Positions 1 through 6,671 of a stretch of DNA of 39,197 nucleotides are shown in pieces (positions within the stretch are counted from its first letter, which is position 1; every line of letters begins with the position of its first letter). Where the stretch lies: the sequence record MN518894.2, one strand, 5' to 3'. Source of the DNA: Escherichia virus LS2. Both the position numbers and the translations under genes were made by a program. Below the pieces are notes generated by a model. That model was not told the origin of the DNA, ran no database searches, and saw nothing but the letters and a program-made list of their open reading frames with translations.

Positions 1-204
1 TCTCACAGTTCAAGAACCTCAAGTCTCCCCATAGGCCCTCTTTCAGTCCAGACAAAAGGCCCTACCCCAGTCTATCATAAGGCTGGACCGATGGTCAAGA
101 CGTTAGGTCAACGATAGGTCTAGGCTATGGCTGAGGTCAGGACGATAGGTAGGGACTATGGGTCTGCCTCTGAGTCCCTAGGTGTATCAGACATTACGTC
201 ACTA

Positions 205-301
205 CCTACAGTCTAACTACCTACAGTCATTGACTCCTGCCTGCCTACCTACAGTCACCGACCATCGGTAAAGCCATTACCTACAGTCAAAGACCTACAG
301 T
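205..301. repeat. Left-end short direct-repeat array: CCTACAGT at 205, 220, 248, 280 and 294
   Basis: Exact 8-mer occurs 5 times in 97 nt and again at 39137-39144 near the right end; analogous to the short repeats beside the terminal repeat of T7-type genomes. Confidence 0.6.
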
Positions 302-553
302 TAACCGACACAAAGCTATAGACTTAAGGTCTAATACATGTTAGTCAAAGACTATATCCTCTTACACTATGGGGCCGACGATAGCTTAATCAATATTATT
401 TAAGATTACCTATTGACTACAGGTCCAGACTATGGCTTAATAGCTTCCGTCAACACGACACGGCAACAACCGGATAGTGAAGACGCCGGGTCATCCCGGT
501 TAAGTAGACAACCTGATAAGTCATACGAACAACAGGCAGATGACAGAAAGTAG

Positions 554-583
554 TTGACAAGATGTACCGACTTAAAGTAGTAT
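554..583 (+). promoter_or_regulatory. Host sigma70-type early promoter (-35 TTGACA 554-559, 18-nt spacer, -10 TAGTAT 578-583)
   Basis: Consensus -35 and near-consensus -10 upstream of the early gene block, at the position of T7 A promoters. Confidence 0.55.
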
Positions 584-721
584 GTACCACATCAACACGA
601 AACAACGGTGACGACCAACACTGAAACGGTCTACCATGAAGTCGACTGGGAAAGGGAATGCTCTTTAACAATCTGGATAAACTCTTAATGTGCGCCGATA
701 GCGACTAACTACAGGGCCTTT

Positions 722-769
722 GAGTCTACATCTGAAGGCCCTGACTGATAGTCACTAACGGAACAGAGG
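722..769 (+). promoter_or_regulatory. Early-leader hairpin (perfect 9-bp stem cagggcctt / aaggccctg) followed by 20-bp box cctgactgatagtcactaac
   Basis: Perfect inverted repeat 722-730 / 745-753; the 20-bp box at 750-769 recurs exactly at 1409-1428; candidate RNase III processing or stability element. Confidence 0.45.
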
Positions 770-776
770 GACACTG

Positions 777-1022
777 ATGAAACATCTGAGCACCATTACC
801 AACCATAACGAAGTATTCGTGAACACTAAAGGTTATGCGTGGATTCAGCTTAAAGAGACGACAGGAGCGCGTCACCGTGTGGTAGTGCGCAAGGTCTCAA
901 GCAAGCCGTTCAGCAACTACAGCGTAGATACTGTTCGTATAGACAACGAGACCTACCTGATAGACTCGCAGATAACCGTGAGTCCTACAGCGAGCGCCTC
1001 AGCTCCTTATTTCGCTAACTGA
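777..1022 (+). CDS. Early hypothetical protein (81 aa)
   Basis: ORF with GAGGG Shine-Dalgarno 6 nt upstream, first gene after the host promoter; no homolog recognised. Confidence 0.6.
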   Translation: MKHLSTITNHNEVFVNTKGYAWIQLKETTGARHRVVVRKVSSKPFSNYSVDTVRIDNETYLIDSQITVSPTASASAPYFAN

Positions 1023-1095
1023 GAGTGCTTCACTACACGTCTGTACACTCATACCGGCCTCACTCATACTCACTAACAACCTAAGAGGATTCATT

Positions 1096-1374
1096 ATGAG
1101 ACTGAACAAAGCTACAGCAGAAGCCTTTCGCAAGGAGCTTGAATCAAGATTATTGTGTGGAGTGGCGGAAGGAGCCGCTCGGTATAAAGAGAATGGTCTA
1201 ACGTTCAAGCGCTTTATGTGGGATTGCTATCACGGAGTGGGCCATAAAAAGGCGCAGGATATAATCACCAGTAACAATGCGGAAGTGCAAGTGGTGGGAG
1301 GATATATGACTAACGTGAAGGATTCACACATAGAGACCATGCTCAAGAATGCACTTAAAGATGTAGCCTACTAG
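1096..1374 (+). CDS. Early hypothetical protein (92 aa)
   Basis: ORF with AAGAGGA Shine-Dalgarno 6 nt upstream; no homolog recognised. Confidence 0.6.
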   Translation: MRLNKATAEAFRKELESRLLCGVAEGAARYKENGLTFKRFMWDCYHGVGHKKAQDIITSNNAEVQVVGGYMTNVKDSHIETMLKNALKDVAY

Positions 1375-1384
1375 TGATTAACTA

Positions 1385-1428
1385 CAGGTCGTTAGACCTG
1401 ATAGCGGGCCTGACTGATAGTCACTAAC
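1385..1428 (+). promoter_or_regulatory. Second copy of the early-leader element (6-bp stem caggtc/gacctg plus box cctgactgatagtcactaac)
   Basis: Stem 1385-1390 / 1395-1400; box 1409-1428 identical to 750-769; lies just upstream of the ocr homolog. Confidence 0.4.
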
Positions 1429-1460
1429 AAACACACACACAACTTTGAGAGGATATAACT

Positions 1461-1796
1461 ATGGAACGTAACGCTAACGCATACTATGAGCTGCTGGCTG
1501 CAACCGTTGAGGCATTTATCGAGCGTATTCAGTACGACCACCTGACTCAAGATGACGACTACAGCGATGCGCTGCACGAGGTCGTAGGCGATCAGGTCCC
1601 GCACTATTACCACGAGATTTTCACGGTGATGGCTGCTGATGGTATAGACCACGAGTTCGAAGACTCTGGGCTGATGCCTGAAACCAAGGACGTAACGCGT
1701 ATCCTCCAAGCTCGCATCTATGAGGCGCTTTATAACGATGTGTCTAATAGCTTGGATGTAGTCTGGTTTGAGGATGAAGAGGACTGCGAGCGATGA
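1461..1796 (+). CDS. ocr: Ocr-like anti-restriction protein (DNA mimic), T7 gp0.3 homolog
   Basis: 111-aa acidic protein; the stretch [43 protein letters not shown] matches T7 Ocr as I recall it; GAGAGGA Shine-Dalgarno. Confidence 0.85.
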
Positions 1797-1963
1797 TAAC
1801 TTACGGTTTATGCCAGCACCACGTCACCAACGCCCGACTTATGGTCAAGACCGGGCAGTTAAACCACGATGCGACTATGCGTCACCTGAAAGCGGTCTAC
1901 GAGGGCCGCAAGCGTATACACGACAGCTTACACGATGAGGATAACCAACAATGCACCAGATAA
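1793..1963 (+). CDS. Small early ORF (56 aa), start overlaps the ocr stop (ATGA)
   Basis: ATGA start-stop overlap typical of T7 early small genes; below the 60-aa cutoff of the ORF track; no homolog recognised. Confidence 0.35.
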
Positions 1964-2076
1964 CTTATAGCAGCGAACAAGCGTTCTACGATGGGTGCTA
2001 CGAGCTGATGAAGCGCGATACTTGCTACGTGGCCAATCGTGAAAGCTTGACCATAACGCTGACAGGTGGATACTGA
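1951..2076 (+). CDS. Small early ORF (41 aa)
   Basis: ATG-initiated ORF following the previous small ORF; weak support. Confidence 0.25.
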   Translation: MHQITYSSEQAFYDGCYELMKRDTCYVANRESLTITLTGGY

Positions 2077-2234
2077 GTGATAGACGAGAGGTCATCGACT
2101 GATAGGTGGCCTCAAAGATTACCACTTACATTGATAGGAGTTAACTATGAAAATGGGTTACGGGGCAGCTTATCTCCGGTCATCTTTCTGATAGCTTGGG
2201 GACTTCTGGACGCAATCAAGCGAGGGTCATTCTA

Positions 2235-2432
2235 ATGAGCTGGGTACTTCTGGGTATCTTAGGCTATGGACTTATCGCATACGTGCTGGTGAGAGACATC
2301 AACAAGGCACGTAAAGTCTATAAATTCAACTATGTACGTATGGTCCGCTGGACTGTACGTCAACCTAACGGACGATTCCTGCGCAATTTAGCGAACGTCT
2401 GGGATATAGCAACTCTTGGGAGCAAACTGTAA
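2235..2432 (+). CDS. Small membrane-anchored early protein (65 aa from ATG 2235; the ORF track extends to a TTG at 2196)
   Basis: GAGGG 8 nt upstream of ATG 2235; N-terminal hydrophobic segment SWVLLGILGYGLIAYVLV. Confidence 0.5.
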   Translation: MSWVLLGILGYGLIAYVLVRDINKARKVYKFNYVRMVRWTVRQPNGRFLRNLANVWDIATLGSKL

Positions 2433-2758
2433 TGAACAAGTCATACGGGATTAATCTGGTACACTCTATGGACGCAGAAATGAACATGTTAAGCCTACTG
2501 GCTACCGGGTATCATCACGGAACGTCAAGTCACACCGCACGTCAACAGCAGGAGCGGGACCGTGTACTACAGGCGCGACTCCGGGCAGAGGGCCATAAGT
2601 CCGAACTGATGTGTCTGGCGTATGGTGGACGACCAATCACCGACGATGGTAAACTTCTGGTATCAGGCTGGACGGCGATAGACCAACGGTCAACCATCAA
2701 GCACACGACAAAAGGTGACTTCAGTCATCTTCACGCTAACCCACTGATATGCAAGTAA
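2432..2758 (+). CDS. Early hypothetical protein (108 aa) at the position of the T7 0.7 kinase, but not a kinase
   Basis: ORF overlapping the previous stop (TAATG); no kinase motifs. Confidence 0.55.
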   Translation: MNKSYGINLVHSMDAEMNMLSLLATGYHHGTSSHTARQQQERDRVLQARLRAEGHKSELMCLAYGGRPITDDGKLLVSGWTAIDQRSTIKHTTKGDFSHLHANPLICK

Positions 2759-2763
2759 TTATG

Positions 2764-2786
2764 ACTTAACTATCACTATAGGACTC
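2764..2786 (+). promoter_or_regulatory. Phage-RNAP promoter (acttaactatcactata G gactc, +1 near 2781) immediately upstream of the RNAP gene
   Basis: Matches the 11-member promoter family in this window. Confidence 0.7.
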
Positions 2787-2855
2787 AAGGTCTAAGACTC
2801 CAAGTGAAAGACCAAAGAGACTCTAAGTGAAAGACTAATAACAAGGACTTTAAGT

Positions 2856-5537
2856 ATGAGCGTCATCTCTATTGACAAACATGACTTCTCTGATGTGTCG
2901 AACGCCATTGAGCCGTTTAACCTGCTGGCTGACCACTACGGACAAGACCTTGCAGTCAAACAGCTTCAGCTTGAGCATGAGGCATATACAGAAGGCGAGC
3001 GACGTTTCATCAAGAACCTTGAGCGGCAGACTGAGCGCGGGGAACTGGCAGACAATCAGGTCGCCAAGCCTTTGATGCAGACTCTGGTCCCTAAGATTGC
3101 GCAAGCCGTCAGGGAGTGGCACGAAGGCCTAGACGGGAAGCTGTCAACCTCGCGTCCTAGCGTAGCGTTCACCATGTTGAGCACTGAAGAGAAGGCCGTT
3201 AAGGACCGCTCTATGCGCATCTCCTGTGAGTCCGCTGCGGTTATCATACTGAAGGTCATACTCTCCAAGCTGGTCAAGCCTGAAGGGATACCGATTACAC
3301 CGATGGCCTCCGCGATAGGTCGCACACTTGAGGACGAAATCCGCTTCGGTCGCATCCGTGACAAAGAGAAGGAGCACTTCAAGAAGGCGATAGCTGATAA
3401 CCTGAACAAGCGAGCTGGGGCATCCTACAAAAAAGCCTACATGCAAGCGGTCGAGGCGTCCATGCTGGAGCAAGGCCAACTGGAAGATGCATGGGGTACT
3501 TGGAGTCCTACAGAGGCTGTACACGTTGGCATCAAGATGCTCGAGATTGTCATCCAGTCAACACAACTGGTCGAGCTTAAGCGGTACGGTGCTGGTAATG
3601 CAGCGGCTGACGTAGAGATGGTCCACCTGTCAGACTTCTGGGTCAAGAAGATGGCACAACGAGGATTCAGCCTTGCGGGTATCGCTCCAGTCTACCAGCC
3701 TTGCGTCGTTCCACCTAAGCCGTGGACTGGTGTCGTAGGTGGTGGGTACTGGGCCAAAGGTCGCAGACCGTTACCATTGATTCGCTTAGGGTCTAAGTCT
3801 GCGGTAGCACGTTATGAAGACGTATACATGCCTGAAGTCTATGACGCTGTGAACATCATTCAGAATACACCTTGGAAAGTTAACAAGAAGGTATTGGACG
3901 TGGTGAACATGGTCGAGAAGCTGAACAACACGCCTATTAATGACATCCCTCAGATGGAACCGCTGAAGCCTGAGGACTATGCTGGTGAAACCGAGGAGGA
4001 ACTCAAGGCATGGAAGAAGACTGCTGCTGGTATCTATCGCCGCGAGAAGGCCAGACAGTCACGCAGATTGTCCATGAGTTTCATCGTTCACCAGGCCAAC
4101 AAGTTCTCACAGTTTAAGGCCATCTGGTTCCCGTACAACATGGATTGGCGAGGTCGTGTCTACGCTGTCCCGATGTTCAACCCTCAGGGTAACGACATGC
4201 AGAAGGGGCTCCTGACTCTGGCAGTCGGCAAGCCTATCGGGGCGGATGGTTTCAAATGGCTTAAAGTCCACGGTGCAAACTGTGCGGGTGTCGATAAAGT
4301 CACCTTCGATGAGCGCATCAAGTGGGTGGAAGACAACCACGAAAACATCATGGCTGCTGCTAAGGCACCGATGGATAGTATTGAGTGGTGGGGCAAGTTA
4401 GACTCTCCGTTCTGTTTCCTCGCGTTCTGCTTCGAGTATGCTGGCGTAATGCACCACGGCCTGTCTTACTCCTGCTCGCTGCCGATAGCGTTCGATGGGT
4501 CCTGCTCTGGTATTCAGCACTTCAGTGCGATGCTTCGTGACCACATCGGTGGACATGCAGTAAACCTGACGCCATCCGGCATGGTACAAGACATCTACCG
4601 CATTGTGTCTGACCGCATTGAGGAGGAGCTTAAAGTCCTTCTGATTAACGGTACTGACAACGAGATGGTCACTCACGAGGATAAGAAAACTGGTGAGATT
4701 ACCGAACGTATCAAGCTGGGGACACGAGAGCTGGCCCGTCAGTGGCTGACATACGGTATGTCACGCAAGGTCACTAAGCGTTCAGTCATGACTCTGGCAT
4801 ACGGGTCGAAAGAGTACGGATTCGCAGACCAAGTTTACGAGGACATCGTGATGCCAGCGATTGACTCAGGGTCTGGCGCTATGTTCACTGAACCAAGCCA
4901 AGCGTCTCGCTTCATGGCAAAGATGATTTGGGAAGCTGTGAGTGTGACAGTAGTTGCTGCGGTTGACGCGATGAAGTGGCTTCAAGGTGCTGCCAAGCTG
5001 CTGGCTGCTGAGGTGAAGGACAAGAAGACTGGGGAAATCCTGAAGCCTTGCCTTCCGGTACACTGGGTCACACCTGATGGGTTCCCGGTCTGGCAGGAAT
5101 ACCGCAAGAAGGATACCACTCGTCTGAACCTGATGTTCTTAGGGTCCTTCAACCTTCAACCTACGGTCAACAAAGGTACGAAGAAAGAGCTGGACAAGCA
5201 CAAGCAGGAGTCAGGCATTAGCCCCAACTTCGTCCACTCACAAGATGGTAGCCACCTGCGGAAGACTGTAGTCCACACTCACAGCAAGTATGGCGTGATG
5301 TCATTCGCAGTGATTCACGATAGCTTCGGGACCATCCCTGCTGACGCTGAGTATCTGTTCCGTGGTGTCCGTGAGACGATGGTCGAGACATACCGCGATA
5401 ACGATGTGCTGCTTGACTTCTACGAGCAGTTTGAATACCAGCTTCATGAAAGCCAGCGCGACAAGTTGCCTGAGCTTCCGAAGAAAGGTAAACTGAATAT
5501 CGAAGACATCTTGTCTTCAGACTTTGCATTCGCTTAA
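2856..5537 (+). CDS. gp1: Single-subunit DNA-dependent RNA polymerase (T7 gene 1 homolog, 893 aa)
   Basis: Co-linear similarity to T7 RNAP throughout, including C-terminal ...HSQDGSHLRKTVV...IHDSFGT...FAFA. Confidence 0.97.
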   Translation: MSVISIDKHDFSDVSNAIEPFNLLADHYGQDLAVKQLQLEHEAYTEGERRFIKNLERQTERGELADNQVAKPLMQTLVPKIAQAVREWHEGLDGKLSTSRPSVAFTMLSTEEKAVKDRSMRISCESAAVIILKVILSKLVKPEGIPITPMASAIGRTLEDEIRFGRIRDKEKEHFKKAIADNLNKRAGASYKKAYMQAVEASMLEQGQLEDAWGTWSPTEAVHVGIKMLEIVIQSTQLVELKRYGAGNAAADVEMVHLSDFWVKKMAQRGFSLAGIAPVYQPCVVPPKPWTGVVGGGYWAKGRRPLPLIRLGSKSAVARYEDVYMPEVYDAVNIIQNTPWKVNKKVLDVVNMVEKLNNTPINDIPQMEPLKPEDYAGETEEELKAWKKTAAGIYRREKARQSRRLSMSFIVHQANKFSQFKAIWFPYNMDWRGRVYAVPMFNPQGNDMQKGLLTLAVGKPIGADGFKWLKVHGANCAGVDKVTFDERIKWVEDNHENIMAAAKAPMDSIEWWGKLDSPFCFLAFCFEYAGVMHHGLSYSCSLPIAFDGSCSGIQHFSAMLRDHIGGHAVNLTPSGMVQDIYRIVSDRIEEELKVLLINGTDNEMVTHEDKKTGEITERIKLGTRELARQWLTYGMSRKVTKRSVMTLAYGSKEYGFADQVYEDIVMPAIDSGSGAMFTEPSQASRFMAKMIWEAVSVTVVAAVDAMKWLQGAAKLLAAEVKDKKTGEILKPCLPVHWVTPDGFPVWQEYRKKDTTRLNLMFLGSFNLQPTVNKGTKKELDKHKQESGISPNFVHSQDGSHLRKTVVHTHSKYGVMSFAVIHDSFGTIPADAEYLFRGVRETMVETYRDNDVLLDFYEQFEYQLHESQRDKLPELPKKGKLNIEDILSSDFAFA

Positions 5538-5549
5538 CAGGAGAGAGTT

Positions 5550-5765
5550 ATGAAATTTGCACACAAGCATGCTGGAGTTAAGGGCGGGACTCAAATCGTG
5601 ACCGTAACAGAACACAACGGCAATGGTCTGGTGAAGACCACGGTCATTCCTACCGAAATGTCAAAGCAGCTTAACGTCCCATTCAAGACCCTCGTCTATC
5701 TTGTGGAATCCAGCCACGAGAAATACCTGAAAGACGCAGTGACCAAGCTGGAGCAGACCAAATGA
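5550..5765 (+). CDS. Hypothetical protein (71 aa) between RNAP and the gene 1.1 promoter
   Basis: Good Shine-Dalgarno GGAGAG; natural codon usage; a degenerate second copy lies at 5843-6151. Confidence 0.65.
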   Translation: MKFAHKHAGVKGGTQIVTVTEHNGNGLVKTTVIPTEMSKQLNVPFKTLVYLVESSHEKYLKDAVTKLEQTK

Positions 5766-5839
5766 CAGACCTACAGTTACTGGCCTTGTGGCTGGGAGCA
5801 CTCGCAGTATTCACTTTAATCCAAAGCAGAAGAGGTTAA
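5762..5839 (+). CDS. Small hydrophobic peptide ORF (25 aa, MTDLQLLALWLGALAVFTLIQSRRG)
   Basis: ATGA overlap with the upstream stop; single predicted transmembrane helix; weak support. Confidence 0.3.
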   Translation: MTDLQLLALWLGALAVFTLIQSRRG

Positions 5840-5842
5840 CCC

Positions 5843-6151
5843 GAAATTTGCACACAAGCATGCTGGAGTTAAGGGCGGGACTCAAATGAACCATCCAGTG
5901 ACCGTAACATAATCTTGAGCTGGCTAACCGGGAACACACACGGCAATGGTCCAAGATTTAGAAGGCTCTGGTGAAGACCACGGTCATTCCTACCGAAATT
6001 AAGCGGATGGTCGGCCTGAAGTTCAAGGCTCTGTTCAAGACCCTCGTCTATCTTGTGGAATTCAAGACCGGGCCAGCCACGAGAAATACCAGAAAGACGC
6101 ACTTCACCACGAGTCGAGACAAGCTGGAGCAGACCAAATGACAGACCTACA
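5843..6151 (+). pseudogene. Block-mosaic degenerate copy of 5552-5775 (gene 5550-5765 plus the first codons of the next ORF)
   Basis: Nine blocks of 6-46 nt 100% identical to the upstream gene, separated by eight replaced blocks of 2-34 nt; ATG replaced by CCG; frame broken. Confidence 0.6.
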
Positions 6152-6343
6152 CGGATGGCTCTCAGAAGGACTTTGAGTACCGACTGAGCGACATCGACGG
6201 TCGCATCCAGTATGACTACGAGCAGGTTAAAGTCTATGGACAGGAGGCCGAACGTGAGCGAGCGATTCAGGCATTCACGCAGGTAAGACCGCGCATCATC
6301 TTACCCCTTTGCCTCCCATTGCCGTTAACCGTTAAAATTCCGT

Positions 6344-6395
6344 GTCGACGTACGTACGTACGTACGTACGTACGTACGTTGCATGCATGCATGCA
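6344..6395. repeat. GTCGAC followed by (ACGT)8 (6348-6379) and (TGCA)4 (6380-6395)
   Basis: Perfect tetranucleotide periodicity; alternating purine-pyrimidine, fully self-complementary; contains SalI, BsiWI, SnaBI, SphI and NsiI recognition sequences. Confidence 0.95.
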
Positions 6396-6417
6396 CTAAA
6401 CTATCACTATAGGATTA
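6395..6417 (+). promoter_or_regulatory. Phage-RNAP promoter (+1 near 6412), phi1.1 equivalent
   Basis: cactaaactatcactata G gatta. Confidence 0.8.
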
Positions 6418-6458
6418 GACTCAAGGTCATGACTCAAAGTCGTGGCCTTCATGATTAA
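6417..6458 (+). promoter_or_regulatory. RNase III-type processing site (R1.1-like)
   Basis: agactcaaggtc...gtggccttcatgatta resembles the T7 R1.1 site as I recall it; two further copies at 13113 and 36188. Confidence 0.6.
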
Positions 6459-6497
6459 CCGGTACGACTCAGGTTCAATTACCGGAGCTGTACACCA

Positions 6498-6671
6498 ATG
6501 TATCAGAACACTATCAACTTCGAGCGAATCCGTGAACGTCAGCAGACTGAAGATTATATTCCGAAGGGACGCAAGCTGAACAAGACCAAGCGTGGTGGAG
6601 GTGTCAAGGGTGCTTTCCGTAACGCTGAAGGCAAAGACGCTCTATGGTCAACCAAGAGAAATACTTCGTAG
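6498..6671 (+). CDS. gp1.1: gp1.1-like small basic protein (57 aa)
   Basis: Contains KGRKLNKTKR as in T7 gp1.1 (from memory); below the ORF-track length cutoff. Confidence 0.65.
   Translation: MYQNTINFERIRERQQTEDYIPKGRKLNKTKRGGGVKGAFRNAEGKDALWSTKRNTS

Follow-up and report, generated by a model that had tools for sequence, protein, structure and literature searches.

The early region of Escherichia virus LS2: a probable gp0.4 homolog behind ocr and a set of orphan genes in a kinase-less, K1F-like coliphage

We propose that the early region of Escherichia virus LS2 very probably encodes, directly behind its ocr gene, a diverged homolog of T7 gp0.4, the inhibitor of cell division that binds FtsZ. 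The sequence analyzed is record MN518894.2 (39,197 nucleotides, nt; this whole stretch is referred to as the window), and the focus is on positions 777-2758. A sequence-only reading of the window had described this block as an early region in which ocr is flanked by unassigned open reading frames (ORFs) and the gp0.7 kinase is missing, and had named these ORFs as the most plausible places for undescribed anti-restriction or anti-defense functions. The first letters of the window are TCTCACAG, and from position 1 it aligns base for base with relatives that are annotated with a 179-bp terminal repeat there; hence the window represents a whole phage genome that starts at the left end, and the early (class I) region of this genome is found at 777-2758. 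Over the 2.2 kb around the block, nucleotide identity is 97.4% to Escherichia virus ECG4 and 93.5% to phage Peacock, both of which are classified in the Autographiviridae, Studiervirinae, genus Kayfunavirus (K1F-like). We are fairly confident of the full model, in which positions ~410-2850 form the class I (early) operon by which a Kayfunavirus, one of the K1F-like coliphages of the T7 family, takes over its host. Judged by sequence, the block is not novel, with every ORF in an existing PHROG family and none representing new sequence space.

The 56-aa gene behind ocr and T7 gp0.4

The ocr gene (gp0.3; 1461-1796, + strand) encodes a short, 111-amino acid (aa) form of the DNA-mimic anti-restriction family. 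The protein (isoelectric point, pI, 4.1) matches Pfam PF08684 at 106.2 bits (cut-off 25; expectation value, E, = 1.3e-30), phrog_2568 (E 3.7e-51) and, over residues 11-98, the sequence of the T7 Ocr structure (PDB 1S7Z, E = 3.6e-25), and it is 51% identical to T7 gp0.3. The claim of a clear Ocr homolog is borne out by PF08684, 1S7Z and the T7 identity, and on sequence the family membership is certain. From homology, the protein would block type I restriction and BREX as a mimic of DNA.

The 56-aa ORF (1793-1963, + strand; K1F gp0.35 family, phrog_5058) begins before ocr ends, the ocr stop and the 56-aa start overlapping in an ATGA at 1793-1796, which is the same arrangement as that of T7 genes 0.3 and 0.4 (junction at 1278). 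T7 gp0.4 resembles the 56-aa protein in size (~50 aa) and in its place directly after ocr with an overlapping stop and start, whereas the two proteins differ by a one-residue insertion after a conserved Gly and are only ~37% identical (36.6% over 41 aa by blastp). The matches to PHROG families are reciprocal, in that the 56-aa ORF matches phrog_5058 and more weakly phrog_25044 and phrog_7202, while T7 gp0.4 matches phrog_7202 and more weakly phrog_25044 and phrog_5058. The pattern common to the two proteins is YGL-x-Q-x-V...MV-x-x-G...M-x-x-LK-x-x-YE.

The relationship was tested with hidden Markov models (HMMs) made from 12 Kayfunavirus and 10 T7-type sequences, with which 3,066 stop-to-stop ORFs from all loci collected were searched. 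Each HMM ranks the members of the other family directly behind its own, at E of about 4e-5 to 0.1, and the noise of unrelated ORFs sets in at E 3.4 and E 0.28, respectively. When the Kayfunavirus and T7-type gp0.4 alignments were compared with hhalign, a probability of 92.9% was obtained (P 3.7e-7, 40 columns); in the negative controls, the Kayfunavirus 56-aa profile stays below 4% against eleven other early proteins of T7, T3, and K1F. In a comparison of 48 Ocr-anchored loci, each taken from the left end to gene 1, an ORF matching either gp0.4 HMM lies directly 3′ of ocr in 32 (22 of these at E≤0.01). Forms that bridge the two families are also present, including CR8 gp0.31, those of loci L076 and L079, and a Klebsiella-type form that starts with ‘MIKYGLTQ...’. 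Taken as sequence evidence, these comparisons make it very probable that the 56-aa ORF is homologous to T7 gp0.4.

The T7 protein binds FtsZ and inhibits cell division (Kiro et al., 2013, cited in PMC9372555 and PMC13423816). When it is bound to FtsZ, protection is seen in its segments 21-28 and 35-46, and escape positions are W28 and L35 (PMC13423816). A hand count on the hhalign alignment gives identical residues in the 56-aa protein at 4 of 8 positions of the first interface segment and at 6 of 12 of the second, and T7 L35 is conserved as L32. Several properties weigh against this assignment or against a shared activity. T7 W28 corresponds to H25, and the two proteins differ in charge, with a basic pI of 8.8 for the 56-aa protein and an acidic one of 4.7 for T7 gp0.4, so that, given the W28 change and the charge, FtsZ binding could have been lost or retargeted. 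In addition, the homology spans only ~40 residues and the families are shallow (effective number of sequences, Neff, ~1.3-1.6). With these points taken into account, the sequence comparisons still make it somewhat likely that FtsZ inhibition is retained, and as the Kayfunavirus ortholog of gp0.4 the 56-aa protein would most likely bind FtsZ and block Z-ring function.

Such an activity fits what has been published on K1F, in which infection produces filaments with multiple Z-rings and FtsZ is mislocalized (Dhanoa et al., PMC9372555). The same authors stated that K1F is without the 0.4 genes, saw no similarity by BLAST, and considered the inhibitory peptide to be novel and unidentified (PMC9372555). 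K1F is described as 0.4-less in the literature because the similarity to gp0.4 is not detectable by plain BLAST of genomes. The literature searched contained neither a later identification of the K1F FtsZ inhibitor nor functional studies of K1F gp0.2, gp0.35, gp0.37, or gp0.38. The K1F gp0.35 family, to which the 56-aa ORF belongs, is the obvious candidate for the FtsZ-inhibiting peptide of K1F and would be its most economical explanation. This also changes the place of the 56-aa ORF among the anti-defense candidates of the sequence-only reading, since a gp0.4 homolog belongs to host takeover and not to anti-defense.

A further gp0.4-like frame was seen elsewhere. The locus on IMG/VR contig 2974604219 (L024) contains, at ~1050-1250, a second, out-of-register ORF that matches the gp0.35/gp0.4-like HMM at 7e-18, which suggests that this phage carries a duplicated gp0.4-like gene.

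The orphan early proteins and the question of anti-defense

All ORFs of the sequence-only reading were found where it had placed them, and its view of them as unassigned no longer applies to the 56-aa ORF or to the small membrane protein, which belongs to the T3 gp0.6 family (see below), but stands for four others, all on the + strand. These are the 81-aa ORF (777-1022; K1F gp0.2 family, phrog_10124), predicted to be a basic (pI 9.5), all-beta and horizontally mobile accessory protein; the 92-aa ORF (1096-1374; phrog_9817), a sporadic accessory early gene with a basic product (pI 9.0); the 41-aa ORF (1951-2076), an acidic accessory (pI 4.9) with a weak match to phrog_33188 (1e-5) and a ratio of nonsynonymous to synonymous substitutions (dN/dS) of 0.15-0.24; and the 108-aa ORF (2432-2758; K1F gp0.38 family, phrog_7066; pI 9.1), a Kayfunavirus core gene in the gp0.7 slot.

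The premise that this region is a variable hot spot is well founded. Between the left end and gene 1, 102 ORF families were counted over the 48 loci, gene 1 lies 904 to 2,699 nt from the start of ocr, the order of the 92- and 81-aa genes is swapped in Vec13, and the 81-aa gene is shared with N4-like phages and Phapecoctavirus. In a phage collection of 50,697 GenBank records, the families of the 65-aa membrane protein, the 108-aa protein and the 56-aa protein are carried by 236, 223, and 180 records, respectively, and those of the 81-, 41-, and 92-aa proteins by 118, 108, and 61; the former three are near core for the genus and the latter three are accessory. In these records, K1F included, the label given to the family members is ‘hypothetical protein’.

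Homologs of the 81-aa protein outside the Autographiviridae are found in the early region of Gamaleyavirus (N4-like) and in Phapecoctavirus, and they are evidence that the gene has been transferred horizontally between unrelated coliphage families. The individual cases are vB_EcoP_SP5M (Gamaleyavirus, locus L009, 2885-3118), whose homolog is 49% identical compared with 36-39% in other Gamaleyavirus records, and Phapecoctavirus nepoznato (a 151-kb myovirus, locus L010, 3001-3246), whose homolog is 75% identical. A fold search with the predicted 81-aa structure found no PDB relative, and no characterized protein matched.

The 92-aa ORF matches phrog_9817 at 3.2e-27 and its family comprises 28 clusters at 90% identity, with 19 representative clusters among 1.84 billion proteins. 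It extends over several Studiervirinae genera (Kayfunavirus, Teetrevirus-like phages, and the T7-like phages of Klebsiella, Serratia, Yersinia, and Pantoea), the gene is located in the left-end early region wherever genome coordinates are informative, and a distant homolog again lies directly 5′ of an ocr gene. Two motifs are conserved, Y-K-x-x-G-L-T-F-[KR]-R-F-x-W-D and D-x-H-I-E-T-M-L-K. An exhaustive profile search returned the 19 clusters, none of known function save a few long proteins that were matched in 5-7 short stretches and are probably spurious, and Pfam and PHROG scans of the remote members, whose contexts are mostly short contigs, added nothing.

Searches for a function of the four orphans were negative. 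The 81-, 92-, 41-, and 108-aa proteins gave nothing above the curated thresholds of Pfam and NCBIfam, where weaker matches amounted to noise, and no match in PADLOC, whose models cover defense and not anti-defense proteins, and dedicated anti-defense libraries (dbAPIS, AntiDefenseFinder) were outside the search. Their PHROG families are all labeled ‘unknown function’. PDB sequence and profile searches with the 81-, 92-, and 108-aa proteins returned only noise at E>0.3, fold searches of the 81- and 108-aa models were empty or returned only uncharacterized proteins, and all hhalign probabilities of the 81-, 92-, and 108-aa proteins against other early proteins of T7, T3, and K1F are below 4%. 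Homology of all the ORFs to characterized housekeeping proteins was likewise not found in the searches. The idea of an anti-defense hot spot therefore holds in part, in that the region is variable and accessory, while the computations yielded no positive evidence of anti-restriction or anti-defense activity for the 81-, 92-, 41-, or 108-aa protein.

The most likely role of these four proteins is as small binders of host proteins, which would serve either takeover or counter-defense, although it weighs against this proposal that a host-protein binder is the default expectation for early phage proteins rather than a result, and no homology, fold or motif pointing to a target was found. The narrower alternative, that the orphan ORFs are undescribed anti-restriction or anti-defense proteins which neutralize specific host immune systems and help a phage without the kinase T7K, is plausible from position and distribution, and we regard it as possible but on the unlikely side. 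The orphan ORFs are near Ocr and among the earliest genes to enter the cell and be expressed; the 81-, 92-, and 41-aa families are spread patchily over the records; and the 81-aa gene has moved among Autographiviridae, Phapecoctavirus and the early region of Gamaleyavirus, which fits a host-directed role independent of the phage machinery. The 92-aa homolog that again adjoins ocr and the 81-aa fold that is without a PDB relative can be added, and T7K is a broad anti-defense factor (PMC13645617) that the Kayfunaviruses do not have. However, the searches gave no match to characterized anti-defense proteins or domains, an acidic DNA mimic is not found among the four (the one acidic protein, of 41 aa, is tiny), and the 108-aa gene belongs to the genus core rather than to the accessory genes. 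An equal distribution pattern is expected of host-takeover inhibitors such as gp0.4 and gp0.6.

Accessory-region counter-defense screens resemble the situation in the window, as they concern short, fast-turnover genes in variable enterobacteriophage slots, with Ocr included (Silas et al., bioRxiv 10.1101/2023.04.06.535777; PMC12373910). Fragments of six to nine residues from six ORFs of the window are absent from the supplements of these screens, so for the orphan proteins there is no phenotype on record there. As a possible origin of the published anti-Dnd kinase JSS1_004, Escherichia phage JSS1 (KX689784) was looked at and rejected: its early region has no kinase, the 81-aa ORF in it is a frameshifted gp0.36, and no function is transferable. 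The preferred view of the orphans as host-protein binders leaves room for the tentative proposal, to which we give the same low but not negligible weight as to the anti-defense alternative, that at least one of them founds a new counter-defense or host-shutoff family that lets kinase-less Kayfunaviruses dispense with T7K. The best candidates for such a family would be the 81-aa beta protein, swapped between early regions in three unrelated coliphage families and without a fold relative in the PDB, and the 108-aa protein, whose gene never occurs together with full-length gp0.7 and accompanies a kinase without a shutoff (SO) domain in Citrobacter phage CR8.

The gp0.7 slot and the membrane protein before it

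The gene before the gp0.7 slot encodes a membrane-anchored basic protein of 65 aa (2235-2432, + strand, with the ATG at 2235 as its best start), which is K1F gp0.37 (‘0.6’ in NC_007456). It is 38.6% identical to T3 gp0.6 (E 4e-7) and 36% identical to phiYeO3-12 gp0.6A, and all three proteins fall in phrog_2385 (the 65-aa protein and T3 gp0.6 at 1e-28 to 1e-29). A transmembrane segment is predicted at residues 1-19, where the Kyte-Doolittle maximum for 19 residues is 2.04 (at residue 1), and the pI of 11 goes with a basic tail. The N-terminal anchor, the basic tail with RxxNGRF and the place just 5′ of the 0.7 slot are shared with T3 gp0.6 and phiYeO3-12 gp0.6A. By sequence, the 65-aa protein belongs to the T3 gp0.6 family, which is itself functionally uncharacterized. 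Its identification with T7 gp0.6, the MreB inhibitor, was ruled out, as there is no blastp match to T7 gp0.6A, which sits in phrog_8393; the two gp0.6 families share a number only and are unrelated.

Just before this gene lies a small variable slot, headed by a hairpin and a strong Shine-Dalgarno sequence, TAGGAG (2077-2146, + strand). This conserved intergenic element, in which the hairpin occupies 2088-2113, is nearly invariant in the window, ECG4, Peacock, Vec13, and K1F, and by analogy the hairpin may have an RNase III role. The slot itself (2147-2234, + strand) contains a decayed mini-gene: relative to ECG4 and Peacock, a 1-nt deletion in the window frameshifts a hydrophobic mini-ORF of 29 aa, leaving a 14-aa stub (2147-2191) that is followed by the out-of-frame remainder. 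In K1F and Vec13 the same slot holds an unrelated membrane peptide of 55 aa (gp0.36, phrog_7319).

The statement that there is no gp0.7 kinase proved correct for more than the early region. A tblastn search of the whole 39-kb window with gp0.7 of T7, T3, and phiYeO3-12 gave no match at E<1e-3, and a kinase HMM matched none of the early ORFs of the window. Depletion of Ser, Thr, and Tyr in early proteins accompanies the promiscuous T7K kinase (PMC13645617). These residues make up 18.1% of the pre-polymerase early proteins of the window, 15.5% of the rest of its large ORFs and 12.1% of the T7 early set (a small sample), and the lack of such depletion in the window agrees with the absence of T7K.

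That the 108-aa gene occupies the gp0.7 slot was confirmed by the comparison of the 48 loci, where the gene following the T3-gp0.6-like gene is full-length gp0.7 in 14 and a member of the 108-aa family in 12. Overall, full-length gp0.7 is present in 16 loci and the 108-aa family in 13, with both in none (Fisher p=0.002, uncorrected for phylogeny). The 108-aa ORF matches phrog_7066 at 1.9e-44, and its family includes 151 clusters, many on contigs of ~40 kb, with source names that are all phage or ‘hypothetical protein’. A conserved core at residues 25-108 is preceded by variable N-termini that give rise to forms of 86, 108, and 130-141 aa, and the C-terminal tail HTTxGDFSHLHANPLICK is nearly invariant. 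The AlphaFold2 (AF2) model is of moderate confidence (predicted local distance difference test, pLDDT, 69.5): residues 36-88 form a helical core that is well predicted, and confidence in the tail is low. Such a conserved but poorly modeled tail would fit a short binding motif. A Foldseek search of the PDB with this model gave nothing below E 4.6. Homology of the 108-aa protein to a detached SO domain of gp0.7 was rejected, as hhalign gave 0.8% for the two alignments (39 sequences against a 19-sequence SO alignment) and 0.2% against the whole of gp0.7.

Citrobacter phage CR8 (locus L080, NC_023548) shows a different arrangement. Its positions 1135-3331 contain ocr, a gp0.4-like gene of 45 aa, a kinase of 242 aa, a T3-gp0.6-like gene and a gp0.38-like gene, the last with an internal duplication of 17 residues (SEDGKLLLAGLKAGIQK twice). 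The match of the CR8 kinase to the gp0.7 profile is confined to the kinase part (positions 49-224), with no SO domain; no other locus seen combines a kinase with gp0.38.

Even without homology, the 108-aa gp0.38 protein could be a functional substitute for the SO domain, acting as a kinase-independent transcription shutoff or nucleic-acid-directed factor. Its gene fills the slot of gp0.7, with the T3-gp0.6-like gene on one side and gene 1 on the other, it and full-length gp0.7 are mutually exclusive across the loci, CR8 pairs an SO-less kinase with a gp0.38-like gene, and the protein is basic with a predicted helical core. Other points weigh against it. The sequence relationship to the SO domain is absent, the co-occurrence is confounded by phylogeny, since the carriers of the 108-aa gene other than CR8 belong to one clade, the CR8 case stands alone, and the model is only of moderate confidence with the invariant tail unmodeled. 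We therefore consider this substitution to be improbable, and well behind the anti-defense alternative.

Organization and expression of the early operon

All seven early ORFs have a Shine-Dalgarno-like GAGG or GGAG 6-10 nt 5′ of the start, all match PHROG families (E 1e-5 to 4e-51), and their pairwise dN/dS values are 0.11-0.42 at dS of 0.11-0.55 (vs Vec13, K1F, or Peacock). Because of the ribosome sites, the PHROG matches and the dN/dS values, they are considered to be real genes under purifying selection. That the short ORFs, and chiefly the 41-aa/56-aa pair, are chance frames or annotation artifacts is very unlikely: the two share 13 nt and are very short, ECG4 is among several records that leave the 41-aa ORF without annotation, the adjacent mini-ORF at 2147 is demonstrably decayed and the K1F ‘gp0.1’ frame is interrupted by an in-frame stop in the window, but both ORFs of the pair have a Shine-Dalgarno sequence and a PHROG match, their dN/dS is 0.11-0.41 at dS 0.3-0.55, their frames are kept in 108 (41-aa) and 180 (56-aa) phage records, and a characterized homolog exists for the 56-aa ORF.

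The closest relative for comparison is the early region of K1F (AM084414, NC_007456), which matches the window in gene order and families, also has no gp0.7 and also has a phage promoter 5′ of gene 1. In the names of AM084414, the equivalents are gp0.2 for the 81-aa protein, gp0.3 for Ocr, gp0.35 for the 56-aa protein, gp0.36 for the decayed slot, gp0.37 for the 65-aa protein and gp0.38 for the 108-aa protein. The two regions differ in that the 92- and 41-aa genes are absent in K1F and present in the window, Vec13, Peacock, and ECG4; Ocr has 111 aa in the window and 169 aa in K1F; gp0.38 has 108 aa rather than the 86 aa of K1F; and the gp0.36 slot, decayed in the window, holds a membrane peptide of 55 aa in K1F. 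With the class I operon of T7 and T3, the window shares left-end sigma-70 promoters, R0.3-homologous hairpins, ocr as the first gene of the conserved core and gene 1 as the last. The T7/T3 operon has the RNase III sites R0.3, R0.5, and R1 and gp0.7, whereas the window is without kinase or SO domain; furthermore, the R0.3-type hairpin is triplicated in the window, where it heads extra cassettes 5′ of ocr, and a phage promoter adjoins gene 1.

The region of the host sigma-70 early promoters is at 413-583 (+ strand), with a near-consensus TTGACA-18-TAGTAT at 554-583, which scores 10/12 in the promoter scan and corresponds in position to the annotated A promoters of T7 and T3, and a TTGACT box at 413; by this analogy the region probably functions as a sigma-70 promoter. 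A hairpin element of ~60 nt occurs in three copies, one before each of the first three genes, all on the + strand. Copy 1, a long-loop form 5′ of the 81-aa gene (698-762), has a minimum free energy of -32.3 kcal/mol (z -4.75); the copy 5′ of the 92-aa gene (1028-1077), a member of direct-repeat family D3, is degenerate and folds no better than shuffled sequence (z -0.57); and copy 3, 5′ of ocr (1372-1430; z -2.04), is the R0.3 equivalent. The element aligns with the annotated R0.3 stem-loops of T3 and phiYeO3-12 and with the sequence before gene 0.3 of T7, and seven copies from three phages retain its consensus fold, with 15 pairs of which one is compensatory. An Rfam scan of positions 1-6500 returned nothing relevant. 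We take the hairpins to be putative R0.3-type RNase III processing sites. It counts against this part of the model that promoter use and RNase III cleavage are assigned by analogy and that the hairpin before the 92-aa gene is degenerate.

The order of the first genes differs among the relatives, with the 92-aa gene before the 81-aa gene in Vec13, the reverse in the window and the 81-aa gene only in K1F. In all three phages, the hairpin in the first position is the long-loop form regardless of which gene comes next, and the ~15 nt from the hairpin to the ATG are gene-specific and move with the gene. This pattern points to recombination within the conserved 3′ arm (GGCCTGACTGATAGTCACTAAC) that would move cassettes consisting of a ribosome site and an ORF, and gene gain, gene loss and order swaps among the relatives would be explained by it.

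The right boundary of the block is the core of a K1F-class phage promoter (2768-2782, + strand), directly 5′ of gene 1 (2856-5537, + strand), which encodes the 893-aa single-subunit RNA polymerase and is annotated as RNA polymerase in relatives. The core sequence AACTATCACTATAGG occurs 13 times in the window at ≤3 mismatches (8 of them exact) against 0.83 expected, with + strand sites at 2768-2782, 6399-6413, and nine more positions. The core before gene 1 is kept in 19 Kayfunavirus-type loci, K1F included, implying that gene 1 is under positive autoregulation. Near the left end, no phiOL-like copy of the promoter was found.

In the proposed sequence of events, the left end would enter the cell, the host RNA polymerase would start at the sigma-70 promoters near 413-583 and transcription would proceed rightward into gene 1. 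The polycistronic early RNA would be punctuated by the R0.3-type hairpins, which are intact before the 81-aa gene and ocr and decayed before the 92-aa gene, and seven small proteins would be produced from it, namely the 81-aa, 92-aa, Ocr, 56-aa, 41-aa, 65-aa, and 108-aa proteins.

Other features of the window lie outside this block. The left-end non-coding sequence at 100-310 contains direct repeats of the ACGATAGGTC type at 100-163 and of the CCTACAGTC type at 198-304, which resemble the arrays beside the terminal repeat of T7-like genomes. The frame at 338-553, which is gp0.1 in the K1F annotation and a 71-aa coding sequence in that of Peacock, has an in-frame TAA at 401-403 in the window and overlaps the host-promoter region, and for these reasons it is probably no gene. 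Downstream of gene 1, patchwork sequence makes up the gene that follows the 71-aa gp1.1-like gene (5843-6141, compared with 5860-6160 of ECG4, MN218775): about seven colinear patches copied from the upstream gene (5550-5765) stand in place of the ECG4 sequence, and in the flanks identity to ECG4 is 100%. A TGA (6139-6141) introduced by one of the patches cuts the 130-aa ORF ECG4_07 to 44 aa, and gene conversion, template switching or an assembly chimera could be the origin of the patchwork. Finally, a perfect (ACGT)x8 followed by (TGCA)x4 at 6348-6395, directly 5′ of the phage promoter at 6399-6413, is identical in ECG4 and is thus natural rather than an artifact of the window.

For the T7-like phages, the triplicated R0.3-type hairpin provides a simple mechanistic picture of how cassettes of early genes may be swapped. 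Within the genus, the gp0.38 family, which replaces T7K genus-wide, and the mobile 81-aa protein are sensible first targets for anti-defense screening. The assignment of the 56-aa ORF to gp0.4 predicts which Kayfunaviruses might trigger or escape defenses that sense gp0.4, such as CapRel-Ebc, and the published gap concerning the identity of the K1F division inhibitor is now directly testable by one cloning experiment.

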